NCBI GenBank assembly: GCA_031272075.1
Contig: JAISUK010000065.1
Coordinates: forward strand, 7,420 to 71,419
Length of the DNA: 64,000 nt
Direction: 5' to 3'
Source of the DNA: Dysgonamonadaceae bacterium
GTDB taxonomy: Bacteria; Bacteroidota; Bacteroidia; Bacteroidales; Azobacteroidaceae
Part shown: positions 1 to 35,562 of the stretch, piece after piece
How positions within the stretch are numbered: the stretch's first letter is position 1
How the letters are laid out: the number at the start of each line of letters is the position of its first letter
Translations under genes and position numbers: made by a program
Notes under the pieces: generated by a model
Seen by the model: the letters and a program-made list of their open reading frames with translations, nothing else
Database searches by the model: none
What the model was told of the DNA's origin: nothing

Positions 1-400
1 GCAACTGACCACCGGCCATGTCATTGTGATGGGAAGAAAAACCTACGATTCGCTGCCGAAAGGGGCATTGCCTCATCGCACCAATGTGGTGATCAGCCGC
101 AACAGCAACCTGCGACTGCCGCAGTGCACCGTCCTGAACTCCTTGCAAGCGGCGTTGACTGCATTTGCAGATGAACAGGAAATCTTTATCATCGGCGGAG
201 CAGAAATCTATCGACAATCATTTCCCCTTGCCGACAGGATCTACCTGACACGGGTGCATGCCGAATTCCCTGACGCAGATACGTTTTTCCCTCCAATCGA
301 TCCGGCGGAATGGCAATTGATCGCCGACGAAACACCCCTCGCCGACGAAACATCCCCCTACAACTACTCCTTTTACACCTTCAAACGCAAGCGCGTATGA
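1..400 (+). CDS. folA: Dihydrofolate reductase (5' end outside window)
   Basis: Frame open from base 2 (QLTTGHVIVMGRKTYDSLP...LPHRTNVVISR...IFIIGGAEIY...DADTFFP): classic DHFR motifs; stop TGA 398-400. Confidence 0.95.
   Translation, partial: QLTTGHVIVMGRKTYDSLPKGALPHRTNVVISRNSNLRLPQCTVLNSLQAALTAFADEQEIFIIGGAEIYRQSFPLADRIYLTRVHAEFPDADTFFPPIDPAEWQLIADETPLADETSPYNYSFYTFKRKRV
321..352 (+). repeat. Period-18 tandem duplication inside folA (ADETP/ADETS)
   Basis: TCGCCGACGAAACA at 321-334 and 339-352. Confidence 0.8.
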
Positions 401-491
401 AACGAGCATGATTTTCAAACATCCAAGTCGACGACAATAATGGCATTGCGATTTCCATACGACCTTTTAAAACAAATTATTGACGTATGAA
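397..491 (+). mobile_element. Start-codon element copy A (putative non-autonomous element)
   Basis: ATGAAACGAGCATG...CATCCAAGT...CATACGACC-T/A tract-TTATTGACGT-ATGAA; left ATG overlaps the folA stop; ATG-to-ATG 90 nt. Confidence 0.75.
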
Positions 492-1780: not shown

Positions 1781-4700
1781 AAAAAATCTATTTCTCCTCT
1801 TTCTCGTAACCTGTATACTGGGATTTACATTCCCCACATTGCTTGCCGCTCAATCACAGCAGGGTATTACGTTGGAAATGAGACAGGCAACGATAGAGCA
1901 GGTCGTTGTCAAGTTGAAATCGATGACCGATTATGGATTTACCTACCGTAGCAGCGACCTGCCAAAAGAAAAGCGCGATTTCGTATTCCGGAATCTGACG
2001 ATCGCACAGGTGATGGACAAACTGGTCGAAGAAACCACCTTGAGATGGACACGCGCAGGAGATGTGATCACGATCCTTGTCGGCGGAAAAACCAGTAGCG
2101 CTCTTCAGCAAAATCTCGGTAAAGTGACGGGACGAGTGACGGATGAAAACGGCGATCCGCTGATCGGCGTAACGGTCGTCGCGAAAGGCACGACGAAGGG
2201 GGTCGTCACCGATGCCGACGGTCGCTTTGAACTCGACGGACTGTCGGGCGGCAGCGTCCCGCTTCGCATCACTTATATCGGAAAAGAAGCGCAGGAGGTA
2301 ACGGTAAAAATCAATTCATACGTGAATATCCAATTGAAGGACGACGTGAGCCAGATCAACCAGGTGGTGGTGACGGGATATCAGACAATCTCCCGTGAAA
2401 AGTCTACAGGCGCTGTGACAACGGTCAATTCGGCAGAACTCGCAGAACGCTACACACCTAATATTGTAAACAATCTTGAGGGACGCGTTGCGGGATTGGT
2501 GACGTATGAAGGCAAAACAACAATACGGGGAACGGGAAGTCTTTATGCCACGACTTCGCCACTGCTGGTGGTGGATGGACTGCCTGTTGAGGAGAATTTG
2601 GAAGATATTAATCCTTATGACGTGGAAAGCATTACAGTGTTGAAAGATGCGGCTGCTACCGCCATTTACGGCGCACGCGCTTCCAATGGGATTATCGTCA
2701 TAAAGACAAAACGGGCTACTCAACGGGATCGCATTGATGTGGATGTGTCGGCTAATTTTACAATTTATCAGAAACGCGACTTGGATTATGCCCGCAACTT
2801 TTACATGACCCCGGAACAGCAGATCAAGACAGAGCAGGATTATTACCAATACTACTTTTTCGATAACGACGGCGAAGTGGTCGACCCGATAGGAACAACC
2901 GAAGCGGCTATTACTGCCACCGCGTATTCAGCCATGAGTCCGATATATTACGCTTATTATCAACTTGCCAAAGGAGACATCTCGCAAAGCGAACTGGATC
3001 GTCGGATCGCGGAATATAAGCAGAACAATTTCGCAAAAGAGTATGCCGACCACGCGCTACTCAACCGTTTCCTGCAACAATACAACATTTCTGCGCGTAC
3101 CCGCTCCGACAACTACCAGTCGAATTTGGTCATCAACTTCAAACGGGATAATATGGGCATCCGAAAGGCCGATAGCAATCAAATGACCATCTTTTACAAA
3201 GGAACTTACGACATAGCATCGTGGGTAACGGTCAATTTCAGTATCAACAGCATATTGGCTAAATCGCAAAGCAGCAACAGTGCGTATGCTACCGATCCAT
3301 TCAATGTTCCAGCTTACTACCGCCTGCTAAACGACGACGGGAGCTACAATTATTATTCAACTTCCATGTACAATATTTACAATACTTTGCCGGAAGAAAA
3401 TTCTGCCCTGCGTACCATGCGATTCAATCATCTGGATGAATTGTCCTATGACCAAACCAATACCGATCGTAGAAATACCCGCTACCATGCTGACCTGCTT
3501 TTCCGTATCCTCCCCGAACTGACCGTCAATACCCAGTTCATCTACGAAACCAACCGGCAAACGGAAACCTCGTATGCCGAAGCGGAGAGTTACATCATGC
3601 GTACAATGCGCAATGTTTATACCGTGCAGTCAGGAACTACCTACAGCTATATGATTCCGGAAAACGGCGGAAAATTGGCAACCGTGAATACAAAAGGTGA
3701 TCACTGGACAGGACGAGGACAGATCGACTACAACCGCAACTTTGGGAAACACGCCTTGAATTTATTGGCCGGGTTGGAGTTCCGTCAGACATTTACCAAC
3801 GGCACACGAGGATTGTTGCTGGGCTACGACGACCAACTGCAGACAGACGCCACCATTTCGGTGAACATACCTGCATTGGAAAATCTTGTTTACACTTCTT
3901 TTTTTATGCCCGGATATCCAGCGATGTCATTGATGTATAATCCATATATTTCTTCGGCCATAGGTACAGTGAAAGAACAACGTCACCGATACGGTTCGGG
4001 CTATGCCAATGCCACCTACACCTACGATAATCGCTACAACGTTTTCGGTTCATTCCGTAAGGATTATGCCGATGTCTACGGGTTGGATACCAGATTCCGA
4101 GGCAAGCCGTTGTGGTCGGTTGGCATCGGATGGAACCTGCACAACGAGGCTTTCCTGGCAGAGGCGTCAAACGTGAATTTTTTGAAAATGCGTGCCAGCT
4201 ACGGAGCAACCGGCAATATCTACCAAGGCGCCACCAGCCACATGACTGCTGCTTCCGGGTTTAATGCCTCTACAAAACTCCCGATGTCGTCGATTGAAAG
4301 CCCGGCAAATTCAGAGTTAAAATGGGAGGAGAATGTAACAACCGACATCGGTGTGGATTTCATGTTGTTCGACCGACTGAAAGGGTCATTAGACTGGTAT
4401 CATAAAAAGGGGAAGGATATTTTCTCCCGAAAAACGCTTGACCCCTCGAAAGGGTTTACCAGCATCGTGATGAACTTAGCCGGATTGAAAAACGACGGCA
4501 TAGAATGGACAATCTCCTACGACTGGTTCAAAGAAAAAAAGGAGGCTGGTTTTGCCTGGAACACAGCGCTTATAGGCTCTAATAACAAAAATAAAATAAC
4601 GGAAGTGGAATCGCAGGCTACGCGGGCAAGTGAGCTGATTTCTACGCCTTTTAAAGTAGGATATCCGGTAAGTGCGCTTTTTTCTTATCAGTTTGCCGGG

Positions 4701-8745: not shown

Positions 8746-9306
8746 ATGGACGAGTCTAATACTTCACTCTTAGAACGGATTGCAAAAGATGACAATCGCG
8801 CATTTCGTGCTTTCTACGATTTATACTATTCCACGATATATAAATATGCATCCTATTATGTGAAGTCGCTTGTCTTGCGGGAGGAAGTCGTGTCGGATGT
8901 TTTCTTTCAATTTTGGCAAAACCGAAAGAAAAATGTCGAACTTAACAACCCAGAAGCCTACCTTATCACCATGACAAAAAACAGGGCTTTGCGAGCGCTT
9001 GACAACGAAAGTCGATTCAATCTTGAAGTCATTGAGCAACTACACCAAGATCGATTGGCGCACAAACAGACACCCGAAAGCATTTTGATTGACCACGAAA
9101 TAGCCAAGAACATTAAAGATGCCATCGACCAGCTGCCCGAACGTTGCCGTACCATATTTCTCCTGGCACGTGAGGAAGGGTTGAAATACCGCGAAATTGC
9201 CGAAGCATTGCAGATATCGGAAAAGACCGTCGATGCCCAAATGGTGATTGCAATCCGAAAACTCACTCAATTATTGGGGAAATATTTTTTCTTTCTCTTC
9301 TTCTAA
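8746..9306 (+). CDS. ECF sigma-70 factor
   Basis: EEVVSDVFFQFW, LPERCRTIFLLAREEGLKYREIAEALQISEKTV. Confidence 0.93.
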   Translation: MDESNTSLLERIAKDDNRAFRAFYDLYYSTIYKYASYYVKSLVLREEVVSDVFFQFWQNRKKNVELNNPEAYLITMTKNRALRALDNESRFNLEVIEQLHQDRLAHKQTPESILIDHEIAKNIKDAIDQLPERCRTIFLLAREEGLKYREIAEALQISEKTVDAQMVIAIRKLTQLLGKYFFFLFF

Positions 9307-9392
9307 TCAAAAAAAAATCTCACCCGTTTAGGGGTATTTTTGGTTTTTGGGCTCTATAATAGTGATAAACAAACTAAAGAACGTCGAGTATC

Positions 9393-10355
9393 ATGAACGA
9401 TCCCGAATTATTGGCTGCCATTGCCGCCTGTCTCAACGGAAGCGCCTTCGAATCGGAGACAAAAGCCGTGGAAAGCTGGTTGAACAAAGACCCACGTCAT
9501 CAGGCTATCTATACCGAATTGGCAAAACGAGATTACCAAACACAGATAGCCCAAGAGTCGGCCGAAGCCAAAGAACGTATTTTTTATCAAGTGGAGCATC
9601 GCATCCACCGACAGACACAACGCCGACGATTGCGCATCTGGCAATGCGTGGCGGCAGCTTCAATCGTTGCCCTGCTTGCCTTTGCAGGAGGGGAATGGCT
9701 CTCCCGTTCGACCACAAATAAACACCGGTTGCTTGAGGCGCAGAGTCCCAAAGGAGCACGGTCGCAGATCGTTCTCGGCGACGGCACGCGGGTCAGTCTC
9801 AATGCCGGCTCTACACTGCATTATCCTGTGTGCTTCGATAAAAAGACTCGCACAGTATCACTCACGGGCGAGGCCTATTTCGAAGTTGCCAAAGATGCAA
9901 ATCATCCATTTGTTGTCGAGGCAGGCGGGATAAGCGTCAATGTGTTGGGCACGCATTTCAATGTCAGATGTTTTGAGAACGACAATAGCGTGGTAACCAC
10001 GCTGCTCGAAGGTTCGGTAAAGGTAAACGATGTTGTCTTAAAGCCCAATCAACAACTGATATACGACAAAGCAACCCACACAGCCTCCCTGCGTGAAGTC
10101 GATGCAGAACAATATGTAATATGGAAAGACGGACAGTATTACTTCGACAGCGAACGATTTGCCAATATCATCAATGAACTGGAGCGCGGATTCGGGATTA
10201 AGATCACAATTCAGGCAGAAGAATTGAAGGATCAGACCTACTCAGGCATATTCACCGCAGAACAAACACTTTATCAGATACTTGAAGCCTTCAAGAAGCA
10301 CCGCAGTTTCAATTATCACAGACACGAAAACGAAATACGAATTTCCTCGCAATAA
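9393..10355 (+). CDS. FecR-family anti-sigma factor
   Basis: LGDGTRVSLNAGSTLHYP...GEAYFEVAKD...VLGTHFNV; adjacent to ECF. Confidence 0.94.
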   Translation: MNDPELLAAIAACLNGSAFESETKAVESWLNKDPRHQAIYTELAKRDYQTQIAQESAEAKERIFYQVEHRIHRQTQRRRLRIWQCVAAASIVALLAFAGGEWLSRSTTNKHRLLEAQSPKGARSQIVLGDGTRVSLNAGSTLHYPVCFDKKTRTVSLTGEAYFEVAKDANHPFVVEAGGISVNVLGTHFNVRCFENDNSVVTTLLEGSVKVNDVVLKPNQQLIYDKATHTASLREVDAEQYVIWKDGQYYFDSERFANIINELERGFGIKITIQAEELKDQTYSGIFTAEQTLYQILEAFKKHRSFNYHRHENEIRISSQ

Positions 10356-10421
10356 AAAATCAGTATTAACCCTCATATTCTAATCCATGATGCTTACAAA
10401 CGACGAACCGCCAAATACAAA

Positions 10422-10457
10422 AGAGCCGACAGATGCGGTCTCATCTTTTTCGGCTCT
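10422..10457. promoter_or_regulatory. Hairpin in the FecR-susC leader
   Basis: AGAGCCGA/TCGGCTCT 8-bp stem plus inner AGATG/CATCT stem. Confidence 0.6.
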
Positions 10458-10510
10458 AAAGTTTCAGTGAAAAAACAAATCGAAATTGTTAAACTAAAAC
10501 GTTCAAAGGT

Positions 10511-10606
10511 ATGAAACGAGCAGGATTTTACCATCATCCTAGTTGATGACAATCATGTCATGCGAGTTCCATACGACCCTTTAAAAACAAATTATTGACG
10601 TATGAA
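10511..10606 (+). mobile_element. Start-codon element copy B
   Basis: gtATGAAACGAGCAGG...CATACGACCCTTTAAAAACAAATTATTGACGT-ATGAA; ATG-to-ATG 91 nt; supplies the susC start at 10602. Confidence 0.75.
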
Positions 10607-13600
10607 ATTAAATAATTCAAGTGTATGTTTTTTGTCTAAAAAAACCATAAGAACCATGAAAGTGAGTTTAATCCTGTTGATATTATCGGCTTTCACTTTG
10701 GTATCCGCCAGCGTTCTTCCACAAAATGCAAGAGTAAGTATTGATGCCCGAAATATCAAGATTAAAGAAGTGCTGTATGAGATCAAGAAGCAAACCAACT
10801 ACTCCTTTCTCTATAGCAACAAGGAACTGAATGACAACAACCGTGTTACAGTCAAGGTCGATAATGAAACGATCGACAAGGTGCTCGACATAATTTTGCA
10901 AGGTCAATCGTTATCCTACGACGTTAACGATGACATGATTGTCATCTACAAGACGGGGCGGCAGAAGAACGCTCCAACCGGCGATGCCAAATCGCCTCTC
11001 TTTGTCAACCAACAAAAGATCACGGTGAACGGCCTCGTGCTCGATCTGACGCAGGGCGACCCCATTGTCGGCGCAAATATCACAGAGAAAGGCACGAAGA
11101 ATATCACTATTAGCGACATAAATGGTCGTTTTTCTTTAGACGTTTCATCGCCCGATGCTATTTTGCAAGTATCCTATATGGGATATCAGACGGAAGAAAT
11201 GACAGTAGGCAACCGCCGAATGTTCGAGATTGCCTTGCAGGAGGATATCAAAGCCTTGAGTGAGGTAGTGGTTGTGGGTTACGGCACCCAAAAACGACAG
11301 AATATAACTGGAGCTGTATCGTCGGTCAATTTTGCCAAAGAAGCCCAATCACGGCCTGTGACATCAACGCCGTTGGCATTAGTCGGTTTGGCGCCCGGCT
11401 TGGGAATACAACAACTTTCTGCCCAGCCAGGCATAGAGAGCATGACGATACGAATCCGCGGTAACGGGACGCTTAACAACAATAGCCCTTTGGTGATCGT
11501 CGATGGTTTTGAAGCGACCATCACCAATGTCAATGCGGATGATATTGAGAGTGTTTCCATCCTGAAAGATGCGGCGTCATGTGCCATCTATGGCAATAGG
11601 GGCGCCAACGGTGTCATCCTGATCACAACCAAATCCGGCAAATCAGGACACAGCTCGATCTCTTACAGCTCCATTTTTGCTGTCAACAAACCCCAACACA
11701 CGATTGACGTCATCTCCAATTATGCCGATTATATGGAAATCATGAATGAATCGGCAGAGAATATCGACATCGCACTGCCCTTCTCCCAGTCCATGATTGA
11801 CCTTTGGCGTGAGAAGGCGAAAGACCCCAATGGCATCGCCGAATCGGGCTATCCAAATTACGTGGCTTACCCCAATGTCGATTGGATGGACTGCATCTTT
11901 GAGAACAACCTCTACCAGAAGCACAACCTGTCGGCAGAAGGTCAGACAGGCAATGCAAAATACCTTATTTCTGCGTCCTACATGGACAATCCCGGCATTA
12001 TGATGAAATCGGGGTTTGATAAAATCTCGTTGCGTGCCAATATTTCATCGAAAATCAATCATTGGCTGGAAGTCGGCGCCAGAATATGGGAATACCGCTC
12101 TACGCGAGAACTCCAGGACTTGAGTGGGGCATTTAGCTATATGTCCCGCGCTCATCCGGGCATCTATCCCTACTACGACGGGAAATACGGCAGCTGGCAG
12201 GAGAACCCCGAACAGAGCGCAAACTCCCGTAACAACCTTTATTTTGTCGATCGTAGTGATGGACAGGATAAAATTCATTATACCAATAGCGCAGTGTTTG
12301 TCAACGTCAAACTTCCATACGCCCTGAAATATAATGTGTCTTTCAACTACATTCATCAGGATGAGGATTATAAATACTACACACGCACGTTGAATACCTT
12401 CTCTTTCCGTACCGGCGAGTGGTCATACCTTTATCAAGACTTGAGCAAATTGCTTATAAGAGGTCAATACCCCAGCACCTCTCACTGGACATTCCAAAAC
12501 ACGCTATCATGGAATGCCAATTTTGCTAAACACGAGATTTCTACATTGGCCGGCTTCGAGTCGATGTATCATAATACCAGTAGCGCCAATGTTGAAAAAA
12601 ACAGTTTCCTGAATGATCTGCTCACCGAACTCAGTACGGCAACCAACATGGTGTCTATCACCGGCACTCAAACAGATTACGCCACAGCATCGCTCTTCGG
12701 ACGGGCGCAATATGCCTACGACAGGCGCTATCTGTTTGAAGTAAACCTTCGCTATGACGGCTCTTCACGTTTTGCACGAAAAACACGTTGGGGTCTTTTC
12801 CCATCCGTATCTGCCGGATGGCGCATTTCTCAGGAAGCTTTCATGAATAATTCGGGCATCGACAACCTCAAATTACGCGCCTCGTACGGAAAATTGGGCA
12901 ATCACAGCATTGGCAATTACGATTATCAGGCAACTTACGTAACGGGGAGCTACTATTCGTTTGGCGGAAAGCAAGTATCGGGAATCACATCCTCACTTTC
13001 CAACGACTTGCTTGAATGGGAAACGACCACATCAACAGATATGGGGCTTGAAATAGGGATATTAAACAACCGGCTCACATTTGAAGCCGACTATTATCAC
13101 AAATTGACAGACGGCATCCTCTATCGCGCTCCTATTTTTGCAACGGTAGGAGTCAAGTCGGCTCCTTATCAGAATATTTGCGAAGTCACAAACAATGGCG
13201 TGGAACTCACAGTCGGATGGCGGGATAAAATCAACGATCTCAATTATGGCGTTTCAGTCAATTTCTCCAGAAATTACAACCAAGTTACCAAATACAACGG
13301 TCCCTTAAAAGCGGGCTGGGTAACAGATGAGAATGGTTTCCGATCCTACCAGACCAACATCGGCGATGTAAGCACCAAAGTAGATAATATGCGACGTACG
13401 ATGGAGGGCAAAATAATCAACGAGTTTTACCTGGCTGAACCCTATCGCGGTGACGGCACTTATTTCTTCGGCGACGGATCGGTCAATCCGTCCGGCGGAC
13501 CGCGCGACGGCATGATCCGCACCGAAGCCGATATGCAATGGTTGGAAGCGATGGTTGCGCAAGGCAATACCTTCCTGCCCAATAAGACGATCGGCAAAAA

Positions 13601-14213
13601 AGGAATCTGGTATGGCGACTTTATCTATGCCGATATAAATGGCGATGGCGTGTATGGCGACGAGAACGACTACAGGTTTCAGAATGTTTCCGTAACCCCG
13701 AAATTCTACTACGGTCTCCAATTCGACATGTCGTGGAAAGGCCTTGATTTTTCGATGTTATGGGCAGGCGCCGGCGGTTTTTCCCAATATTGGAGATTTG
13801 CCGGATTCAATGCCTATTCGACACGAGCCGATCTGACGCTTCCGAAAGGGATTGCTTACGATCACTATTTCTACGATCCGAACAATCCCGGTGATCCACG
13901 AACCAATTTGACTTCGGAGCATGGCCGCTTAACGATGAACTATGGTTCGGAACAGAATGGAGGTACAAATTATACGACGCTTTGGCTTTACAAAGCCGAT
14001 TACCTGAAACTAAAAAATCTGACTGTTGGGTATACCATTCCCGGTAAGTGGCTTCGGAAAGTCGGCATGCAGGATGCCCGCGTGTTCGTCAGCGGCGATA
14101 ACCTGCTGACAAAGACCGACTACCCCGGAATGGATCCGGAGATGTCCGGCACAGACCTTCAGTTCTATGCCAACCTCAAGCAATATTCAATAGGTCTCAG
14201 TGTTAAATTCTAA
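10602..14213 (+). CDS. SusC/RagA TonB-dependent transducer
   Basis: STN N-domain, EVVVVGYGTQK, LKDAASCAIYGNRGANGVILITTK, C-terminal GLSVKF. Confidence 0.96.
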   Translation: MKLNNSSVCFLSKKTIRTMKVSLILLILSAFTLVSASVLPQNARVSIDARNIKIKEVLYEIKKQTNYSFLYSNKELNDNNRVTVKVDNETIDKVLDIILQGQSLSYDVNDDMIVIYKTGRQKNAPTGDAKSPLFVNQQKITVNGLVLDLTQGDPIVGANITEKGTKNITISDINGRFSLDVSSPDAILQVSYMGYQTEEMTVGNRRMFEIALQEDIKALSEVVVVGYGTQKRQNITGAVSSVNFAKEAQSRPVTSTPLALVGLAPGLGIQQLSAQPGIESMTIRIRGNGTLNNNSPLVIVDGFEATITNVNADDIESVSILKDAASCAIYGNRGANGVILITTKSGKSGHSSISYSSIFAVNKPQHTIDVISNYADYMEIMNESAENIDIALPFSQSMIDLWREKAKDPNGIAESGYPNYVAYPNVDWMDCIFENNLYQKHNLSAEGQTGNAKYLISASYMDNPGIMMKSGFDKISLRANISSKINHWLEVGARIWEYRSTRELQDLSGAFSYMSRAHPGIYPYYDGKYGSWQENPEQSANSRNNLYFVDRSDGQDKIHYTNSAVFVNVKLPYALKYNVSFNYIHQDEDYKYYTRTLNTFSFRTGEWSYLYQDLSKLLIRGQYPSTSHWTFQNTLSWNANFAKHEISTLAGFESMYHNTSSANVEKNSFLNDLLTELSTATNMVSITGTQTDYATASLFGRAQYAYDRRYLFEVNLRYDGSSRFARKTRWGLFPSVSAGWRISQEAFMNNSGIDNLKLRASYGKLGNHSIGNYDYQATYVTGSYYSFGGKQVSGITSSLSNDLLEWETTTSTDMGLEIGILNNRLTFEADYYHKLTDGILYRAPIFATVGVKSAPYQNICEVTNNGVELTVGWRDKINDLNYGVSVNFSRNYNQVTKYNGPLKAGWVTDENGFRSYQTNIGDVSTKVDNMRRTMEGKIINEFYLAEPYRGDGTYFFGDGSVNPSGGPRDGMIRTEADMQWLEAMVAQGNTFLPNKTIGKKGIWYGDFIYADINGDGVYGDENDYRFQNVSVTPKFYYGLQFDMSWKGLDFSMLWAGAGGFSQYWRFAGFNAYSTRADLTLPKGIAYDHYFYDPNNPGDPRTNLTSEHGRLTMNYGSEQNGGTNYTTLWLYKADYLKLKNLTVGYTIPGKWLRKVGMQDARVFVSGDNLLTKTDYPGMDPEMSGTDLQFYANLKQYSIGLSVKF

Positions 14214-14226
14214 AAACAGTCATATT

Positions 14227-14319
14227 ATGAAACGAGCATGTTTTTCAAACATCCAAGTTGATGACAATAATGACATGCAAGTTTCATACGACCTTAAAAA
14301 AAAATTATTGACGTATGAA
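14227..14319 (+). mobile_element. Start-codon element copy C
   Basis: ATGAAACGAGCATG...GTTTCATACGACC...TTATTGACGT-ATGAA; 88 nt; between susC and susD. Confidence 0.75.
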
Positions 14320-16081
14320 TAACTTATATAAAATCTTCTTGTCGTTAGTCTTGATCTGTTCGATCGCCGGATGCAGTGATTTTTTAGACCGCAATCCTTA
14401 TGACGAGGTAAGTTCAGGAAATGTATTCAATTCCGCTTCTTTAGCGGAGACTGTCGTGATTAGCGCTTACAGTAATTTACGTTACGACTACACCGGTACC
14501 GGCCGAGACCTTCTCAATTGGGATGCTTTCGCGTCGGTGATAGATCCAACCGATGCCCATATTTTTCTGAACTACAACTACCTTACAGGCGCTATACAAT
14601 CTAATGATGCCTCGTTTCTAACGTATTGGAAACGCTTCTACGAAGGTGTGTCGCGTGCCAACGATGTGATAAACAACATCGGACGTGTTCCGGACATGAC
14701 CGACGCACTCAAATCACAACGGATTGCCGAATGTAAATTTATCAGGGCTTATCATTATTATCAACTGAACTGCCGGTGGCGCGGCGTTCCTGTCTATCTC
14801 GAAAATCTCGCTAATTCGGAATATACACGTCCCCGTTCTTCGGAAGAGGAAGTGTGGAATGTGATTGTCAAGGATTTGACGGACTGCATCGACTGTCCGG
14901 ATCTGCCCGGAAAATATGCATCCAACAGCAGCGACTATGGACGTATCACCAAAGGGGCAGCCTATACACTTCGGGGCAAAGTTTACCTGTGGCAACAGAA
15001 ATGGGCATTGGCTGAAGCGGACTTCCGGGAGGTTGGAAAATTGGGATATTCGCTTTATCCCGGCAACTATGCCGACCTGTTCAAACTTGCACAGGAAAAA
15101 TGCGATGAAATGATTTTCAGCATACAAATGGAAGAACTGTCCGGTCAAGGCAATGCGTTCAGCTATACGTATGGCAATTGGATGACGGCGGGCGGCGGCA
15201 ATTCGTCGTTCTTCATGAACACAAAATTTGTGGACACATACGAATGGGCGAATGGTAAACCATTTGACTGGAACGATGTTGTTGCCGGTTACAACAGTAT
15301 GACAACTCAAGCCCGTAGCGTCTATTTCCTGCGTGACAACATTACCTCGACCGAGCAGAGCACCATGCAAATCTATGGAGCCGACATGAGCAAATACCTT
15401 TCCACAGGCAACGAAGCGCGTATCAAAGCGGCATATACCGATCGCGATCCGCGGCTCTTAGCAACGGTGATTACTCCTTATTCCACCTATTCCGGCGGTT
15501 TTTCGGGCGCTGCAATCGATTATTCGCCCAGATGGCCGTTCCGCAGCAGTTCCGCTTCGCCGTATGATCTGCAAACCAAGTCAAACAGCCACTTCCTCTA
15601 TTCGATTCGGAAGTTTGTAGCGCCGGGACGCGAATTTCTCAACATCGCTTTCAATCCGATTGATGTCCCGGTATTCCGCTATGCTGATGTGTTGCTCTGC
15701 TTAGCGGAGGCGCTCAACGAGCAGGGAAAATATCAGGAAGCCATCACTTTTATAAACCAGGTGCGAAACCGAGCAAAAATAGCTCCCCTCAACGAAGCAG
15801 GAAATGCATTTGTCGCCGTAAACAACTCCGATCAGTTGCGCCCAAGGATACGCAACGAGCGTAAATGGGAACTCGCCGGCGAGTTGCAACTATACTATGA
15901 CGAGCTCCGCTGGGGAACATGGAAGGACGACAAATTCGCCGACGGCAATGGCTTGCTGGAGGCATGGGGCACACCTGTATATTCCTATGTCTGGGGAGGA
16001 TCGGCATACCTCAAATGGCCGATACCGGCATCTGAAAAAGAAATGAATACGAATCTTGAACAAAACGAAGGTTGGAATTGA
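14315..16081 (+). CDS. SusD/RagB lipoprotein
   Basis: IAGCSDFLDRNP lipobox, AECKFIRAYHYY, FRYADVLLCLAEA, ERKWELAGE, LEQNEGW. Confidence 0.95.
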   Translation: MNNLYKIFLSLVLICSIAGCSDFLDRNPYDEVSSGNVFNSASLAETVVISAYSNLRYDYTGTGRDLLNWDAFASVIDPTDAHIFLNYNYLTGAIQSNDASFLTYWKRFYEGVSRANDVINNIGRVPDMTDALKSQRIAECKFIRAYHYYQLNCRWRGVPVYLENLANSEYTRPRSSEEEVWNVIVKDLTDCIDCPDLPGKYASNSSDYGRITKGAAYTLRGKVYLWQQKWALAEADFREVGKLGYSLYPGNYADLFKLAQEKCDEMIFSIQMEELSGQGNAFSYTYGNWMTAGGGNSSFFMNTKFVDTYEWANGKPFDWNDVVAGYNSMTTQARSVYFLRDNITSTEQSTMQIYGADMSKYLSTGNEARIKAAYTDRDPRLLATVITPYSTYSGGFSGAAIDYSPRWPFRSSSASPYDLQTKSNSHFLYSIRKFVAPGREFLNIAFNPIDVPVFRYADVLLCLAEALNEQGKYQEAITFINQVRNRAKIAPLNEAGNAFVAVNNSDQLRPRIRNERKWELAGELQLYYDELRWGTWKDDKFADGNGLLEAWGTPVYSYVWGGSAYLKWPIPASEKEMNTNLEQNEGWN

Positions 16082-16105
16082 TTCAGTTACTAAAATTTAA
16101 ATTTT

Positions 16106-17683
16106 ATGGAAAAGATAATAAAACACATCGGTTTATTGTATATTCTGCTCACTTTGTTTGCAACCGGATGCGAAAATTCATCCGACAATAACCATAGTTT
16201 GGAATACACCACCCTCACAGTTAACTTCGAGGGATCTCTGCTCAATGGAACGTGGAACGACGGCGCTCAAATCGGAATATTTGCTTCCTGCACTCGAAAC
16301 GAAGAACAGCATGTGTCAATGAGCGCCAATGTCAATGCAAAATACACCGCATCGGCAGGAGAAACGGCTCATTTATTGAAAGCATCTGATAACGACCTGA
16401 TCGTTGCAAACATGACCGACCACAATTTTCAATTTTACGCCTATTATCCCTATTCCGGCGCAATAACAAACCTGTCGAACATCGAGGTATCGGTGCCTTC
16501 GAAACAAGATTATGCCACAGGCGCTATGAATTACGGCGCTTATGTGGCGAACAAACAGGTAACAACCATTGTGCCAACTGTTAAACTCGAATTTCGGGGA
16601 TTATTCAGCCTGTTGGATCTTTATCTGCCTAATGACATCACCGACGACGACGGCCACTCTACTATCCGGTCGCTGACCCTGAAGCCGGTCGTTGCCGAAA
16701 ATTTCACCGGAACGTTGACCACCGGGGGTACTTATAATCTTGAAACCGAAACGTTTACTGAAAACCCATCCATGCAAGGTGATTCGGTACAGTTGGATTT
16801 TGGAGCCACCGGTCTTACGCTCACCGACGCTTTCACCAAAGTATCGCTCGCCGTTGCTCCATTCACCGTTCCCGTCGGCGGCATGAGCGTCGTTGTTACT
16901 GACATGTCGGGCACAGAAAAAACCGTGTCAATGCTTACCAAAGACGAGGACGCCGGAATCGCATTATCTGCGGGAGAGGCATTGACGGTCTATCTCAGCA
17001 GTGACGACGACGGCATCATCCCGGTAACTTTCCCTGTGGTTTTCCCACTTGGATCGCCCTATAATGGTGAGGCTCAGGGCGCTTTCCATGCCACCCGTCA
17101 ACCAAGATGGGTCAATGAGGGTTATTGGATCTGTCTGACCCAGTCGCAGGCATACGCTACATGGACATGGGTTTCGACATTAACGCCTGCTCCTTTTCGC
17201 GAAACCATCAACAGCGGCGTCATCAGTTCACCGGGTGTCAAAGGCATTTGGACCGGCGATTATTTCGAATTTGTCCTTCCGGTAAAAAAATTTGCGGCCG
17301 GAACGTCGGTTACAATGGAATTTCCGGTGCTCACACGTTTTGCTCCCGCATTTTGGAATATAGAATATTACGACGATGAACAGTGGAAATGCAATAAAAC
17401 AAACGTAACTTGTTTCAACCGTACGGAACAGGCCACTTTTGCGATAAACTCTTACAATGCAGGGATAATCATTGAGCACACCATGACTTTCACAAAGGCC
17501 ATCAAAAGCGGATATGTGAAAATCAGGCTCACGTGCGCCAACGGGTCTCTTTTAGTGGGCAATGGAGTGGTTGAAGAATATGCAAAACCGCACACCAATG
17601 CCGCAGGCACTGCATACGATGCTCCGTTCTATTTCTATAAGGCTTCATCGGATGTAACAAGTATCACATTTTCAGTTAACTAA
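16106..17683 (+). CDS. Fimbrillin (Mfa-like) family lipoprotein, probable surface glycan-binding protein
   Basis: Lipobox ATGC; W-x-D-G-x-x-IGIF and FYAYYPY motifs of fimbrillin-like domains; position after susD. Confidence 0.6.
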   Translation: MEKIIKHIGLLYILLTLFATGCENSSDNNHSLEYTTLTVNFEGSLLNGTWNDGAQIGIFASCTRNEEQHVSMSANVNAKYTASAGETAHLLKASDNDLIVANMTDHNFQFYAYYPYSGAITNLSNIEVSVPSKQDYATGAMNYGAYVANKQVTTIVPTVKLEFRGLFSLLDLYLPNDITDDDGHSTIRSLTLKPVVAENFTGTLTTGGTYNLETETFTENPSMQGDSVQLDFGATGLTLTDAFTKVSLAVAPFTVPVGGMSVVVTDMSGTEKTVSMLTKDEDAGIALSAGEALTVYLSSDDDGIIPVTFPVVFPLGSPYNGEAQGAFHATRQPRWVNEGYWICLTQSQAYATWTWVSTLTPAPFRETINSGVISSPGVKGIWTGDYFEFVLPVKKFAAGTSVTMEFPVLTRFAPAFWNIEYYDDEQWKCNKTNVTCFNRTEQATFAINSYNAGIIIEHTMTFTKAIKSGYVKIRLTCANGSLLVGNGVVEEYAKPHTNAAGTAYDAPFYFYKASSDVTSITFSVN

Positions 17684-17690
17684 ATACAAA

Positions 17691-17784
17691 ATGAAACGAG
17701 CATGGTTATACAAACATCCAAATTGATGACAATCATGTCATGCGAGTTCCATAAGACCTTTTAATAAAATTATTGACGTATGAA
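17691..17784 (+). mobile_element. Start-codon element copy D
   Basis: aaATGAAACGAGCATGG...CATAAGACC...TTATTGACGT-ATGAA; 89 nt; 7 nt after the upstream stop. Confidence 0.75.
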
Positions 17785-18922
17785 ACGTATCTATATTGTT
17801 TTTGTTTGTTGTGCAATGGCGGCATTGTCCGCCTGCACAACAAAAGTCCCAACGATTGAAAGATTGTCGTTCGGAAAACTGTCGACGGGTGAAGAGGTTA
17901 CGCTCTACCGTCTGAAAAACGGCAATGGTTCGTCGGTGGATGTGATTGATTACGGTTGCCGCATTGTACGGATCTGTGTGCCAGACCGCAACGGTGTGAT
18001 AGACGATGTCGTTCCGGGCTATGGCAATATTCGGGATTTTGAATTCGGAAAAGAACGCTTTTTCGGCGCCTTGATAGGTCGCTACGGCAATCGAATCTCT
18101 AACGGCAGTTTTATGCTCGACAGCCTGCATGTGCAACTGTCCCGCAATGAAAAACTGGGGGAGTATTCGGGACACCTCCACGGCGGAGAGAAAGGCTTCG
18201 ATCGCGTGATGTGGGAAGGCGAACCCGTTACGGAACAAAACCGCCTGGGAGTGAAGTTCAGGCGCATCAGTCCTGACGGTGAAGAGGGCTATCCGGGGAA
18301 TCTCGACTGTGAGGTAATCTATTGGTGGAACAAAGACAACGTTTTGAAAATAGAATACCGTGCCACGACCGACAAGCCGACCATCGTGAATCTTTCAAAC
18401 CACACCTATTTCAATCTGAAAGGTGCTGACGGCGGATATATCATGGATCATATCTTGTGTGTCGAAGCGGATAAATATCTTCCTAACACCGACCATTACG
18501 TTCCCAAAGGAACAATAGAACCGGTGGAAGGCACTCCTTTTGATATGCGCGAACCCCACCGGGTGGACTATGCCATTGATACACCCAACGAACACTTGCA
18601 AACCATGCACGGATTCTCCGTTACATGGGTTTTGCGGAATCAAACGGGAGAACTCGCAAAAGCAGCCGACTTGTGGGAACCACGTAGCGGTCGAGGCGTT
18701 GAGACATGGACAACGGAACCCGGACTGCTGACATACACCGGTCGCGGCCTTTCTGAGGCAATCGTAGGCAAGGAAGGCAAACCGCTCGAAAAGTTCGGCG
18801 GTATGCTGCTCGAAACGCTGCATTTTCCCGACTCGCCCAACCATCCGGAATATCCGTCAACAAAACTATATCCCGGACAAACCTATTATTCAACTACTGA
18901 ATTTAAATTTTATGTTAAATGA
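17780..18922 (+). CDS. galM: Aldose 1-epimerase (mutarotase) with lipoprotein signal
   Basis: IGRYGNRI, HLHGG, GYPGNL, NLSNHTYFNL, LETLHFPDSPN motifs; N-terminus MKRIYIV...LSAC. Confidence 0.88.
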   Translation: MKRIYIVFVCCAMAALSACTTKVPTIERLSFGKLSTGEEVTLYRLKNGNGSSVDVIDYGCRIVRICVPDRNGVIDDVVPGYGNIRDFEFGKERFFGALIGRYGNRISNGSFMLDSLHVQLSRNEKLGEYSGHLHGGEKGFDRVMWEGEPVTEQNRLGVKFRRISPDGEEGYPGNLDCEVIYWWNKDNVLKIEYRATTDKPTIVNLSNHTYFNLKGADGGYIMDHILCVEADKYLPNTDHYVPKGTIEPVEGTPFDMREPHRVDYAIDTPNEHLQTMHGFSVTWVLRNQTGELAKAADLWEPRSGRGVETWTTEPGLLTYTGRGLSEAIVGKEGKPLEKFGGMLLETLHFPDSPNHPEYPSTKLYPGQTYYSTTEFKFYVK

Positions 18923-20700
18923 AGCGACAATTCGTACATATCCTCTTGTTGGCGCTTTGTTACAGTGTGGCAGCGTCATGCAGTAAATCGGACGACCCCG
19001 AACTCGATCCGGATTCGGGAGGCGTCGGACAATCGCAAACGCTGCAATTAACGCCTGTTGGAAAATTGAATCAAGGGACGCCGGTGATCAATTCCCATGC
19101 CGACGTGACCGCCCGCTCGTCACTGAAGATGGACTATCGCAGCTATGTAGAGATCGGCAGCAGCCAAGTACAGGTTGCCGCTCCGGTCTATCCCCGCGTG
19201 AAGAAAATGGCAAATGGCCGGTACATTCTCTTCTACCACAACAATCAGATTGGCGCCGATTCTTACTATGTCCGCAGTTCGGACTTATTGACATGGACAG
19301 GAGGAGACAGGGTGTTTGCCAGGTATTCCATCATCGACCAGTCGGGTGCAAGCAACGAACGCCGTTTTTCAAATTGCAACGGATTGGTGCTCGCTAATGG
19401 CGACGTTCTTGCCGTAGCCTCCTATCGCGCCAATGCAAATTATAAAACCCTCAAAAAGGATAATGGCTTAATCTTGCGGCGAAGTACCGACAATGGTGAG
19501 ACATGGAGCAATCCGGTCGAAATTTATCAAGGCACAAATTGGGAACCGCACCTGTTACAGCTGCCTTCCGGCGAGATTCACTGCTATTTCACCGAATCCA
19601 GAACCGATATAGCAGACTATAACTCAGGTGTAGGGCTGATCATTTCTAATGACAACGGTTATACGTGGACACCCTCTTTTGGGAACGAACCATACAGGGT
19701 GATTCGTAAAAAATTTGGAGAAAAAGACGGCGTCGGTCTTTTCACAGACCAAATGCCGGGCGTGATCAAACTCAACAACAGCAACCAACTTGTCGCAGCG
19801 TTGGAGACCTATTACGATGGGGTTTATTACCATATCTCGATGGCCTATTCCGACAATAACGGACAGTGGCCGCATCTTACGATAAACGAGGAAGGCCCCG
19901 CCGATCGACACAATTTCATCTACCTCGGCGCAGCGCCCAGCTTAGCTCAATTTCCTTCAGGTGAAACACTCTTATCCTACAACGCATCATCGCGTTTCAC
20001 TCTGAGATTGGGAGACGCCACAGCGCGTACATTCGGTGAGGCTTATGACCCTTTCCCAAAAACCGGTTATTGGGGAACGCTCGAACCGATAGACGCCCAC
20101 CAGATCATAGGATCGATGCATACTTCGGGCGCCTTGATGTTGGCGCGTTTCATCCTGAACCACCGCATTGTCGCAACGCACAGGACAGTGAATGTTGATG
20201 GCAATAATTCGGAATGGAGCACCACTGACGATGCGCTCTTTGTAGGTGAAAAATCCCAGGCTCAAGCCACATTACGATGCTCTTGCGACAACGATAACAT
20301 CTACTTCTTGGTCGAAGTGCTTGATCAAGCTATTTCGCAGGACGATGATGTAAATATCTTCCTCTCTCCCATCACTGCAACGGGTGATCTGAACTCCGAT
20401 GCGCGACGCATCAAGGTGGCGTACAGCGGATTGAAGAGTACGGATATTTATGCCGGAGGGTGGCGCACTACAGATATGAACGTTTCGGTGAAAGGTGCCT
20501 ACGACGGTACATTATCGGATAACAGCGATTCCGACAACGGATATCTGATCGAAATCGCCATTCCGCGTTCTCAATTGAATCTGTCGTCCGGCACCCTTTT
20601 GGTGAATTTTGCATTATTCGACAGCCAAGGAGGGGAAGACGCTATCTGCAACACCGCATCGAAAAGCCTCGCAACCTGGATTCCAATATCCGGGTTATAG
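18919..20700 (+). CDS. Asp-box beta-propeller lipoprotein (sialidase-fold/GH93-like) with probable C-terminal sugar-binding domain
   Basis: Asp-boxes STDNGETW and SNDNGYTW; YPR, WEP and QMP motifs; C-terminal VDGNNSEW...DNIYFLVEV CBM9/DOMON-like segment. Confidence 0.65.
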   Translation: MKRQFVHILLLALCYSVAASCSKSDDPELDPDSGGVGQSQTLQLTPVGKLNQGTPVINSHADVTARSSLKMDYRSYVEIGSSQVQVAAPVYPRVKKMANGRYILFYHNNQIGADSYYVRSSDLLTWTGGDRVFARYSIIDQSGASNERRFSNCNGLVLANGDVLAVASYRANANYKTLKKDNGLILRRSTDNGETWSNPVEIYQGTNWEPHLLQLPSGEIHCYFTESRTDIADYNSGVGLIISNDNGYTWTPSFGNEPYRVIRKKFGEKDGVGLFTDQMPGVIKLNNSNQLVAALETYYDGVYYHISMAYSDNNGQWPHLTINEEGPADRHNFIYLGAAPSLAQFPSGETLLSYNASSRFTLRLGDATARTFGEAYDPFPKTGYWGTLEPIDAHQIIGSMHTSGALMLARFILNHRIVATHRTVNVDGNNSEWSTTDDALFVGEKSQAQATLRCSCDNDNIYFLVEVLDQAISQDDDVNIFLSPITATGDLNSDARRIKVAYSGLKSTDIYAGGWRTTDMNVSVKGAYDGTLSDNSDSDNGYLIEIAIPRSQLNLSSGTLLVNFALFDSQGGEDAICNTASKSLATWIPISGL

Positions 20701-27809: not shown

Positions 27810-29447
27810 TTAATAACCGATGTTTTGTTTTAGATTGACGTTTCCTTCGAAAGCTTGCGACGGAATCGGAAACACATGATGTATATTCGGGTCGAAACTG
27901 CGTGCGCCATAGATTTCGGAAGTGCCGGTGATGGTCACAGGACCATTGACGACGGTGCCTGCGGTATAGGTCACGCCATGCGTAGGTTGGGCGTACAACC
28001 TTTGTGCGTCGCCCCAACGAACAACATCGATGTGTCGGCTGGGCAGGTATTCGGCTGCAAGTTCCACTCGGCGTTCGTTTTTCAGTTGTTCTTTCGTTGC
28101 GGCGCTGTTTTCCGGCAACCGGGCACGTTTGCGAATCCGATTGAGCAATTGCTTCGCTTCGCTGTCGCCTTCGCCGTTTTTCCAGATCAGCGCTTCGGCT
28201 TTCATCAGCAGCACGTCGGAAAAGCGGATAAGGCTTGTGCCGAGCGTGTTGCACATGTAATTACCGTTTGTATTGACATCTTTGCCGATGCAGTCAGCAG
28301 CTTCGTAAGGCGACATGAATTTACGGAATGTCATGCCAGAAGTGGACGAAATGCCCCAGGTGCGGGTCGAATTGCTGATCGCGTCGAATGTCATTCCGCC
28401 GAACAACACGTCGCGGCCTACAAATTGAATATGGTCGCCCGGTCGCAAGATCGTCGCATCGCGGCGGGTATCGTCCGCCTCAAAAGCATTCCACAGTTCC
28501 AACGTCGGCTGGTAGTATCCCCAGGTGTTGATGATGCTGTATCCGTCCTGGTTAAACCCGACGCCATGGTAAATAGGACCCTGGTTGGCATTGCCGAGCA
28601 TGGAAAAAATGTATTCGGAAGAAAAATTGTTTTCCTTACGCCACAATTTGGCAAACGGTACGGCGGAATTGTCGTCGAACAACTCCCGTCGATCGGCGCC
28701 TGTCAAAGCCATAATCTTATTGCAAAAGTCAATGACAGTATCGAAATATTTGGCGTCGTATTGAGCGGCGTACAGAGCGGCGCGTGCACCGAATGCCCAT
28801 GCTGCCGCCTTATGCGGGTAGCCGTACAGATTTTCCGGTAACTGTGAGAAGAGCGGCAGTTTTTCGCCCGCCGTATACATGTCAGCGATAATCTGGTCGT
28901 AGTTGGCCAATACCGAAGTCGGTCGCGGCACGTCCATATCTACCGGTTCGGTCGTTTCAAGGATAATCGGAATCCCGCCGTTCGGGCCGTTGTCGCCATA
29001 CCAGGGCGCTAACCACAGCATGGAAAAGCCGCGAAAGAAATAGGCGATGCCTACCGTCTGTTCGATGTAAGTCTTATCCAGTTCCATGGTGGGCACCAGT
29101 TTGATGATATTGTTTGCTTTGGTCACATTCTGATACATGTCGCGCCATACATAACGCTGGTCGTCGGAGTTGTTGGCCGGCATCAGGAAATTGCGAATCT
29201 GATCGGCCGAAGCCCTTGTGCGTCCGGGAACTGTATTGTCGCTACAACATTCCAGCCACATGTGACCACGTCCGCCACACCATTCCGTGGTAGTGAAATT
29301 GAAAAGGGCGGCGATCGCCAAATCCACATCTTCGACGGTTTGCCATCCGGTAGGCCGTCCGTAGTGGGGCGTATCCAAAAAATCGCTGCATCCTGCAATG
29401 ACCAGGATACTGACAAATAAACTGATTATTAATATTTTCGTTTTCAT
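27810..29447 (-). CDS. SusD/RagB lipoprotein
   Basis: IAGCSDFLD, AYFFRGFS, IRFSDVLLMKAEA, ERRVELAAE, LKQNIGY. Confidence 0.94.
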   Translation of the reverse strand: MKTKILIISLFVSILVIAGCSDFLDTPHYGRPTGWQTVEDVDLAIAALFNFTTTEWCGGRGHMWLECCSDNTVPGRTRASADQIRNFLMPANNSDDQRYVWRDMYQNVTKANNIIKLVPTMELDKTYIEQTVGIAYFFRGFSMLWLAPWYGDNGPNGGIPIILETTEPVDMDVPRPTSVLANYDQIIADMYTAGEKLPLFSQLPENLYGYPHKAAAWAFGARAALYAAQYDAKYFDTVIDFCNKIMALTGADRRELFDDNSAVPFAKLWRKENNFSSEYIFSMLGNANQGPIYHGVGFNQDGYSIINTWGYYQPTLELWNAFEADDTRRDATILRPGDHIQFVGRDVLFGGMTFDAISNSTRTWGISSTSGMTFRKFMSPYEAADCIGKDVNTNGNYMCNTLGTSLIRFSDVLLMKAEALIWKNGEGDSEAKQLLNRIRKRARLPENSAATKEQLKNERRVELAAEYLPSRHIDVVRWGDAQRLYAQPTHGVTYTAGTVVNGPVTITGTSEIYGARSFDPNIHHVFPIPSQAFEGNVNLKQNIGY

Positions 29448-29534
29448 ACGTCAATAATTTTTTTAAAGGTCGTATGGAACCCGCATGTCATTATTGTCAT
29501 CAACTTGGATGTTTGAAAATGATGCTCGTTTCAT
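29443..29534 (-). mobile_element. Start-codon element copy E
   Basis: Minus strand cgtATGAAACGAGCATC...GTTCCATACGACCTTTAAAAAAAATTATTGACGT-ATGAA; 87 nt; between susC and susD. Confidence 0.75.
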
Positions 29535-35487: not shown

Positions 35488-35562
35488 GGTGGTTGTAGCT
35501 CAGCTGGTTAGAGCATCAGATTGTGGTTCTGAGGGTCGTGGGTTCGAATCCCATCATCCACC
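35488..35562 (+). tRNA. tRNA-His (GTG)
   Basis: G-1 plus cloverleaf: GCTC/GAGC D-stem, TCAGA-TTGTGGT-TCTGA anticodon arm, TTCGAAT T-loop, discriminator C; CCA not encoded. Confidence 0.95.

Follow-up and report, generated by a model that had tools for sequence, protein, structure and literature searches.

Two competing folds before susD in a Dysgonamonadaceae bacterium as a possible by-product of a start-codon repeat

Within a 64,000-nt stretch of contig JAISUK010000065.1 from a Dysgonamonadaceae bacterium (the window), the junction between a gene for a SusC-like transporter and one for a SusD-family protein carries two ATGAA words and, between them, a short internal segment that is complementary to both. 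The question raised by this locus is what such an arrangement is for. A first-pass annotation, made from the letters of the window, had taken it for a built-in switch, in which one anti-start sequence pairs with either the old or the new ATG, and had proposed that ribosome loading at the upstream ATG selects the fold, such that the element would be a portable translational attenuator that tunes stoichiometry inside susC-susD operons. With moderate confidence, we instead read the copy at this junction (copy C) as one insertion of an approximately 95-nt, gene-sparing mobile hairpin repeat, of which the bistable leader is a by-product. The genome is a 3.0-Mb draft, 93% complete, for which genes were called by a long open reading frame (ORF) heuristic made for this analysis, and the energetics given for transcripts are equilibrium predictions for naked RNA.

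The gene upstream of the junction (10602-14213, on the forward strand, as is everything described for copy C) encodes a TonB-dependent transporter with Plug, TonB_dep_Rec, STN and CarbopepD_reg_2 domains, and ends with a TAA at 14211-14213. It is followed by a 13-nt spacer (14214-14226) that, judging from homologous junctions in the same genus, is the native susC-susD spacer and thus the putative ancestral initiation region of susD. The left ATGAA (14227-14231) comes next, and the conservation boundary together with the composition of the flank identify it as the probable old start codon of susD, the insertion target and the left direct repeat. A long imperfect hairpin (14226-14288) is predicted from this point by RNA minimum free energy (MFE) folding, by an RNAalifold consensus and by pair counts. 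At its foot, the left TATGAAAC (14226-14233, with its ATG at 14227) pairs with GTTTCATA (14281-14288) in a perfect helix of 8 bp; above the foot lie a GA/AA internal loop, an inner helix of GCATGTT (14236-14242) with GACATGC (14272-14278), and an apical helix of CATC (14250-14253) with GATG (14260-14263). The internal GTTTCATACG (14281-14290) contains the anti-start TTCATACG (14283-14290; TTCCATACG in the consensus), which is complementary to both ATGAA repeats and, at the old ATG (14227), to TATGAA. To the right stands the A/T-rich tail ACCTTAAAAAAAAATTATTGACGT (14291-14314), which is kept in all copies and would serve as an element-borne translation initiation region before the gene ATG, and last the right CGTATGAA (14312-14319), the right direct repeat, which includes the working start codon (14315-14317) of a 588-aa product with SusD_RagB and SusD-like_3 domains.

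The pairings described by the first-pass annotation can be read to the base in copy C. The internal motif is complementary to both starts, and TTCATACG forms with CGTATGAA a perfect helix of 8 bp around a 21-nt A/T loop (ACCTTAAAAAAAAATTATTGA, 14291-14311) over the susD start. Its left pairing also holds for 8 bp, but the CG by which that pairing was said to be extended is absent from copy C, where the flank reads ATT. The perfect pairing of copy C is itself the exception, as roughly 93% of copies carry TTCCATACG and so have an A.C mismatch in both helices.

Several observations point to insertion at an ancestral start codon. Homologous susC-susD junctions in two genomes of the same genus have gaps of 13 nt and 22 nt directly before ATGAAA, and the 13 nt between the susC stop and the left ATG of copy C match these native gaps, which argues that the element entered at the former start of susD. 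When 91 non-nested copies (the 19 of 110 that sit behind an older tail having been removed) were compared with 541 ordinary ATGAA starts, positions -6 to -1 of the old ATG had the same composition as in the ordinary genes (T at -1, 0.48 versus 0.44; G at -2, 0.20 versus 0.17; C at -3, 0.21 versus 0.16), and a left flank that resembles background in this way indicates that the target is just ATGAA(A). In this genome, ATGAA and TATGAAA words that lie outside genes are mostly start codons; sequence-directed insertion, together with loss of insertions within genes, can therefore explain much of the association with starts. The ATGAA direct repeat is also what a 5-bp target duplication is expected to leave, with the same appearance.

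It is reasonable to postulate, then, that the element integrates at ATGAA in one orientation, usually at a Met-Lys or Met-Asn start codon. The old ATGAA and the native upstream region would remain to its left, while the A/T-rich tail and the new (CGT)ATGAA on its right would become the working start. The internal TTC(C/T)ATACG would be the 3' foot of the long hairpin; being the complement of the ATGAA core, it would be able to pair with either direct repeat. In the messenger, the default left helix would form first during transcription and would usually be the more stable, burying the old AUG while the new initiation region, rich in A and U, stays open; in the alternative helix it is the new AUG that would be hidden. 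That this is also the default in vivo is something we infer. An old start that is buried and a new one that is exposed fit an element designed to be harmless to the gene it enters. With energies as near to equal as those given below, translation could plausibly, on physical grounds, be damped or switched to some extent, and the element would carry this to every gene that it hits, as a by-product and not as an evolved device for susC-susD stoichiometry.

Copy C belongs to an interspersed repeat of about 95 nt, of which blastn recovers 125 near-full copies genome-wide. Exact-ended copies number 70 across the genome, versus none for a reversed-pattern control, and the median identity of the 125 near-full copies to their consensus is 94%, with 45 of them at 95% or above. 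Their anatomy is constant, with a left flank, then ATGAAACGAGCATG, a variable centre, CATGCGAGTTCCATACGACC and TTTTAAAAACAAATTATTGACGT, and finally the gene that begins ATGAA(A). Conservation spans from the A of the left ATG, a sharp edge across 110 copies, to the end of the right ATGAA, and the three-part arrangement of left ATGAA, anti-start and right ATGAA is common to all six copies in the window. Every copy reads the same way as its gene, with ATGAA on both sides, and the right ATG opens an ORF of at least 100 aa in 95 of 119 copies (80%); four adjoin another copy. Products resembling those with signal peptides are encoded downstream of the element in 72% of cases versus 60% for other genes that start with ATGAA, and since the latter figure is already so high, the bias is largely that of Met-Lys and Met-Asn starts in general.

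In addition to these copies, the last 10-32 nt of the element stand alone, as solo tails, before the starts of 103 long ORFs (a second count gave about 89). With 74 full copies and 103 tails among some 2,100 long ORFs, an element-derived initiation region is found at about 8% of them, or approximately one in 12. The lengths of the element are bimodal, either full or no more than about 32 nt with almost nothing between, which suggests that the whole hairpin is lost at once rather than by random 5' truncation. One solo tail in the window lies at 1752-1798, where AAATTATTGACGT precedes an ATGAAA start. Nested or tandem arrays also occur (window 55239-55364, and contigs C21, C14 and C41), in which a tail or a full copy abuts the next through one shared ATGAA.

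The genes behind the window copies are those for a SusC-like transporter, two SusD-like proteins, an aldose 1-epimerase and a protein with a 3-keto-disaccharide hydrolase domain, and genome-wide the downstream genes are of diverse and unrelated functions. As such, the idea of a device for susC-susD stoichiometry does not hold, for the element precedes about 8% of gene starts of all kinds. Other roles for the repeat were also examined. A protein-coding repeat is ruled out, as its frame is shifted by indels and the consensus stops after four codons; a promoter within the element was rejected, with three weak sigma-70-like matches against 1.5 expected. No Bacteroidota-type TAnnTTTG box was seen by eye on the sense strand of the element, and no terminator was found inside it. 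Rfam holds no family for it: at the gathering threshold the window returned only a tRNA elsewhere, and matches with E-values up to 10 on 14150-14400 were noise.

Do the two folds in fact compete? The copy C transcript is predicted to form its long hairpin with an MFE of -22.6 kcal/mol (z -3.2), and the outer helices are recovered by an RNAalifold consensus on 47 diverse copies, with the hairpin covering element positions 1-68 and a right tail of 25-30 nt that is A/T-rich and unstructured. A partition function was calculated, with flanks, over 103 copies, and gave a mean probability of 0.50 for the left pairing and 0.34 for the right. The optimal fold that contains the left stem is more stable than its right-stem counterpart by a mean of 1.2 kcal/mol; the two lie within 1.5 kcal/mol of each other in 35% of copies, with the left favoured by more than this in 46% and the right in 19%. 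The difference tracks the accidental left flank (-3.1 kcal/mol with CGT, -0.7 kcal/mol otherwise). For copy C itself the values are -23.5 kcal/mol for the left and -22.0 kcal/mol for the right, with pairing probabilities of 0.87 and 0.11. The two mutually exclusive folds that had been proposed are thus borne out in silico, and the competitive alternative fold is there when each copy is folded with its own flanks.

These numbers bear most directly on the portable attenuator, in which a ribosome at the old AUG would melt the left arm, after which the anti-start would hide the real start and so tune the downstream cistron (susD relative to susC). We consider this account quite unlikely, near-isoenergetic folds in its favour notwithstanding. 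When the left arm of copy C was forced single-stranded, as a crude mimic of a ribosome, the probability of the right pairing rose from 0.11 to 1.00 and the predicted accessibility of the start codon fell by half, from 0.39 to 0.18; the mean probability of the right pairing rose from 0.34 to 0.62. Ribosomes able to reinitiate would be within reach at 43 of 110 copies, which lie no more than 40 nt behind a gene on the same strand, and it is the structure of the mRNA that tunes initiation in Bacteroidota, rather than Shine-Dalgarno pairing (PMC6847099). The covariation of the right helix, described below, is strong and also speaks for it. Against it stands the upstream ORF, which is conserved in neither length nor sequence. 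In about 75% of copies it has four codons (MKRA-stop) and ends 75 nt before the gene; an ORF of 31 codons is found in copy C and a few others in which the TGA at codon 5 is lost, and other subfamilies differ again. It ends within -30 to +32 of the gene ATG in 21 of 110 copies, and such bridging ORFs are not enriched where they might be of use, being found at 10 of 43 tight junctions versus 11 of 67 copies elsewhere; adaptation of the ORF by the host at operon junctions was rejected on this count. Nor is there a coherent group of downstream genes, and the 103 genes with a tail only have no anti-start at all. Last, both RNA helices, and hence the one that hides the start, are weakened by the C of TTCCAT, a base retained by about 93% of copies in this genome and by almost every genus, and the anti-start shows no extra conservation, varying at about 5% per site versus about 7% at neighbouring positions. 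The proposal that a ribosome chooses the fold is favoured by the shift of copy C fully to the right in silico and weakened by the unconserved ORF; portability as an attenuator fares similarly, given the competing folds and right-helix covariation on one side and the ORF and the roughly 100 tails lacking an anti-start on the other. In terms of predicted folding, the interpretation is partly supported as physics, with regulation unproven.

Copy C nevertheless has properties of its own. Its upstream ORF (MKRACFSNIQVDDNNDMQVSYDLKKKLLTYE, 14227-14322) was opened by a change of TGA to TGT at codon 5, and its TAA (14320-14322) overlaps the susD start (ATGAATAA). The old AUG, 13 nt on, could be a reinitiation site for ribosomes that terminate on susC, and with TGT in place of TGA these could cross the whole element and stop at the UAA that overlaps the susD AUG (AUGAAUAA). 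Such read-through would, by analogy, amount to the coupling described for mycobacterial interspersed repetitive units (MIRUs; PMC12548453), would be a property of copy C and not of the family, and would melt both helices rather than choose between them. Elsewhere in the genome, the copies at C93:31073(+), C32:1498(-) and C71:41931(-) have two changes in common, codon 5 from TGA to TGT and TTGACG to TGGACG; both in-frame stops are lost in these three, which places the old ATG in frame and would add an extension of 30 aa (MKRACFSNIQVDDN...GR) before the Met of the gene.

A role in RNA without switching must also be weighed. Under this explanation the hairpin would act constitutively, in the manner of repetitive extragenic palindromic (REP), enterobacterial repetitive intergenic consensus (ERIC) or Correia elements, as an intercistronic stabiliser or a target for RNase, hiding the old start, mildly damping the new one and passively shifting the susC:susD ratio. 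The stability of the copy C hairpin is in accord with it, as is the modestly lower predicted accessibility of start codons in element-bearing genes (0.39 versus 0.47), and REP hairpins are known to affect mRNA turnover (summarised in PMC3479197). No terminator was found between susC and susD, and the element is therefore probably transcribed within the operon. We hold it to be unlikely all the same, for it leaves unexplained the covariation between the internal triplet and the right end, and any such effect would be incidental to insertion.

It is this covariation that most informs what the internal segment is for. In a set of 184 unique elements, which came from this genome and upwards of 45 more, the triplet after the internal CAT is the exact complement of the triplet before the right ATG in 141. 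An internal triplet other than ACG occurs in 38 of the 184, and 17 of these 38 have an exactly complementary triplet at the right end, in six types (ATG/CAT in nine elements, GCG/CGC in three, GTG/CAC in two, and CTG/CAG, CCG/CGG and AAG/CTT in one each), where 10,000 shuffling trials gave 1.0 on average and never more than 7. A looser first pass also returned CAG/CTG and TCG/CGA pairs, and some variant pairs are found inside one genome and one subfamily. A formal pair count on the alignment had 96.4% of cells paired and 18 cells with double changes versus 4.8 +/- 1.6, a number reached in none of 500 shuffles; when the partner column was slid, paired cells dropped to 15-52%. The left flank behaves differently, being complementary in only one of the 38 variants, with about half of the cells unpaired in the pairs that would extend the left helix. 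Pairing of the guide-like segment with bases upstream of the old ATG, as a means of choosing the target, is ruled out by this figure and by the background-like flank. On the evidence of the alignment, the internal segment is kept complementary to the right end of its own element, and the old start would be paired only through the constant ATGAA(AC).

The same data decide against the most trivial explanation, that target duplication and an inverted repeat suffice and the complementarity has no role in mobility or in expression. An arm that is inverse to the duplicated core of the target must pair with both copies of it, and most positions of the helix are invariant and carry no covariation information, both of which are in keeping with such an outcome. 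However, the triplet before the right ATG lies outside the duplicated core and still covaries, in six complementary combinations that the left flank does not share, which implies selection on the pairing somewhere in the life of the element; the occurrence of the six pair types in different subfamilies also argues against a single inherited event. We regard this explanation as very improbable.

As to where the pairing would be selected, our reading of the repeat as mobile places it at the level of element propagation, where the complementarity of the triplet to the right end would be maintained. In the joined ends of a circle or tandem, or on recognition of the right end in single-stranded DNA (ssDNA), it would complete a 10-bp hairpin foot of NNNATG-A-AAC with GTT-C-CATN'N'N'. 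The right and left ends, when joined and folded as ssDNA, give one long hairpin (-9.9 kcal/mol for the top strand, -11.5 kcal/mol for the bottom, z of about -3.3 for both), and in the bottom strand a G.T replaces the conserved A.C mismatch. A circle or tandem junction would read ...GACGT/ATGAAACGAGC..., the stroke marking the join, and tandem right-end/left-end junctions do occur in this genome and are abundant in others.

A more specific form of this can be put forward, tentatively, as a possibility. The internal TTCCAT-NNN may be the nucleic-acid guide of an undescribed hairpin-based mobile system, one without a Y1, IS110 or TnpB enzyme detectable here, although the genome has 125 young copies. 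Both junctions would be defined by this 9-nt guide, pairing in turn with the ATGAA target and with the right end of its own element (NNNATGAA); the switch would act on ssDNA in transposition, and the leader in the mRNA would be its shadow on about 8% of genes.

Certain findings weigh against a mobile, gene-sparing repeat as the whole explanation, and it is fitting to consider them together. The covariation fits a right-hand RNA helix and a joined-ends DNA helix equally, and among transition mismatches at the covarying pairs, wobbles of the top and the bottom strand are found in similar number (14 vs 17), so these counts single out neither a strand nor a molecule as the place where the helix counts. 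No mobilising enzyme was found: Y1_Tnp (PF01797), the IS110 DEDD transposase and the TnpB zinc ribbon are absent from the 93%-complete draft, and metagenome-style drafts can lose multi-copy insertion sequences (IS). Y1 does not track the element among 41 relatives either, being present in 10 of 15 that carry it versus 16 of 26 that do not. An empty site at the level of strains was not found, the sole other assembly coming from the same sample and breaking at, or being chimeric across, the repeat. On the side of translation, the 19% of copies that favour the right stem are predicted to prefer the fold that hides the start. Over positions -15 to +12 the element-bearing genes are predicted to be as open as ordinary ones (0.55 versus 0.50-0.52); only the start codon itself is predicted to be somewhat less accessible (0.39 versus 0.45-0.49). 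From these models an effect of the element on expression is likely, and some loci could exploit such an effect.

Two of these points can be expanded. An autonomous parent was sought among copies that retain the left end only, and rejected, as the ORFs downstream are ordinary host genes (an ECF sigma factor, lipoproteins and a protease). The empty site was sought through exact-protein look-ups, for which the matches were contigs of the same sample only. One of them, Logan contig L120 (SRR14710912), encodes an identical SusD and at 2880-3010 fuses the right half of copy C to the left flank of the C62 copy, the latter lying behind a TauE-family gene; the junction is a chimera made in assembly across the repeat, or else genuine recombination there. 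A second contig of SRR14710912 begins within copy D.

Comparison with known systems yields partial likenesses. MIRUs are short, high-copy and apparently mobile repeats that stand at start codons in sense orientation, often in operons (summarised in PMC12548453), and the present element is likewise found at start codons in sense orientation with the gene spared, as the 95 of 119 copies that open a long ORF attest. The internal ORF of a MIRU is, however, translationally coupled with a -4 overlap (PMC12548453), whereas the consensus ORF here falls 75 nt short; the present element brings instead an A/U-rich initiation region, a new ATGAA and a hairpin over the old ATG, and its ORF reaches the gene in few copies only. 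Among hairpin-based elements, IS608 of the IS200/IS605 family reads its cleavage and target sites by base pairing with a guide beside a hairpin (PMC3201880) and can be reprogrammed through that guide (PMC5934647). Members of that family and the gene-less palindrome-associated transposable elements (PATEs) share with ours the reliance on hairpins, a one-orientation insertion 3' of a short sequence and a similar right end, and the covariation of guide with end is what the logic of an internal guide predicts. They differ in having subterminal hairpins at both ends, where our element has one major hairpin; its two ends would need to share one guide-like segment, on the 3' side of the foot; and the Y1 HUH transposase and TnpB were not found in this genome.

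REPs and bacterial interspersed mosaic elements (BIMEs), and the REPIN-RAYT system with its TnpA-REP enzyme (PMC3333891, PMC8266576), are similarly high-copy extragenic palindromes, often intercistronic, whose hairpins can alter operon expression. REPs are, in contrast, GC-rich sequences of 20-40 nt whose 5' tetranucleotide is conserved; they are associated with a RAYT gene and are not tied to starts, whereas our element is about 95 nt, A/T-rich and fixed to ATGAA starts, with no PF01797 gene. Leader-peptide attenuators of the erm and cat type, and switches with alternative helices, also have a short upstream ORF and two exclusive helices of which one occludes the start (for our element, in silico); the known leaders have a conserved peptide or a sensor of ligand or stalling and serve a defined class of gene, and the element is without a conserved ORF, an apparent sensor or a coherent regulon. 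Classical MITEs, derived from DDE transposons, have terminal inverted repeats at both ends and a target-site duplication. In our element the inverted repeat consists of the left end and an internal site some 25-30 nt short of the right end; the termini have just ACG...CGT in common, although the ATGAA direct repeat is present. The core sites of an integron attC, R'' and R', are RYYYAAC and GTTRRRY, which flank an imperfect palindrome. The foot ATGAAAC/GTTCCAT does have AAC/GTT and an unpaired GA/GA spacer, but RYYY and RRRY do not fit; no search for an integron integrase was made. No matching description of a start-codon repeat or MITE of this kind in Bacteroidetes was found in the searchable literature.

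The element is not confined to this genome. Diverged relatives are present in every one of the eight genomes that represent the genus and, more sporadically, in other families within the order Bacteroidales, and an exact-pattern scan of species genomes matched at least 95 stretches. Among the matches listed are metagenome-assembled genomes (MAGs) labelled Paludibacter, Dysgonomonadaceae, Prolixibacteraceae, Lentimicrobiaceae and Prevotella, as well as the cultured carriers Anaerophaga thermohalophila DSM 12881, Marinilabilia salmonicolor JCM 21150 and Parabacteroides sp. PF5-9. These carriers retain both arms (ATGAAACGA(A)GCATG and CATGCGAGTTCCATAYGACC) along with the tail, and the centre is swapped for unrelated sequences that still fold. 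Two MAGs labelled Dysgonamonadaceae (Md513_bin7 and bin8; L048 and L113) carry the subfamily of this genome, with the same centre and TTGACGT tail; Paludibacter-labelled MAGs carry other subfamilies. The same subfamily in differently labelled MAGs could reflect close kinship or horizontal spread.

The remaining copies in the window can be placed as follows. Copy A (397-491, forward strand) is the one whose right ATG opens an ORF of only six codons. Copy B (10511-10606, forward) lies between a gene for a FecR-like anti-sigma factor and the SusC-like gene (ATG at 10602), and copy D (17691-17784, forward), which does carry the internal CATAAG attributed to it, precedes the aldose 1-epimerase gene (ATG at 17780). 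A further copy, on the reverse strand (29443-29534), stands between a SusC-like gene (29556-32750) and a SusD-like gene that starts at 29447 on the minus strand, and copy F (55263-55364, forward), nested behind a solo tail, precedes the gene with the 3-keto-disaccharide hydrolase domain (ATG at 55360). The locus at 8746-20700 encodes, in order, an ECF sigma factor, the FecR-like anti-sigma factor, SusC with its STN domain, SusD, a protein with an Mfa-like fimbrillin domain and aldose 1-epimerase, followed by a gene flagged as coding for a BNR/propeller protein; the repeat is found at three junctions of this locus. A tRNA gene lies at 35489-35562.

If the element is indeed a mobile repeat that spares the genes it enters, then approximately one gene start in 12 in this organism would have an initiation region supplied by a selfish repeat, and each full copy would bring with it a hairpin that hides the old start and, on paper, may also hide the new one. 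Such a genome would constitute a natural experiment in initiation independent of Shine-Dalgarno pairing in Bacteroidota, as well as a source of insertion-driven variation in expression within polysaccharide utilisation loci. For annotation, a measure of caution would follow: a leader shared in this way should not be taken for a gene-specific regulator, nor the left ATG for a start codon. Furthermore, covariation that resembles that of a guide, in the absence of the known guided transposases, may point to a new manner of homing to a short DNA word.

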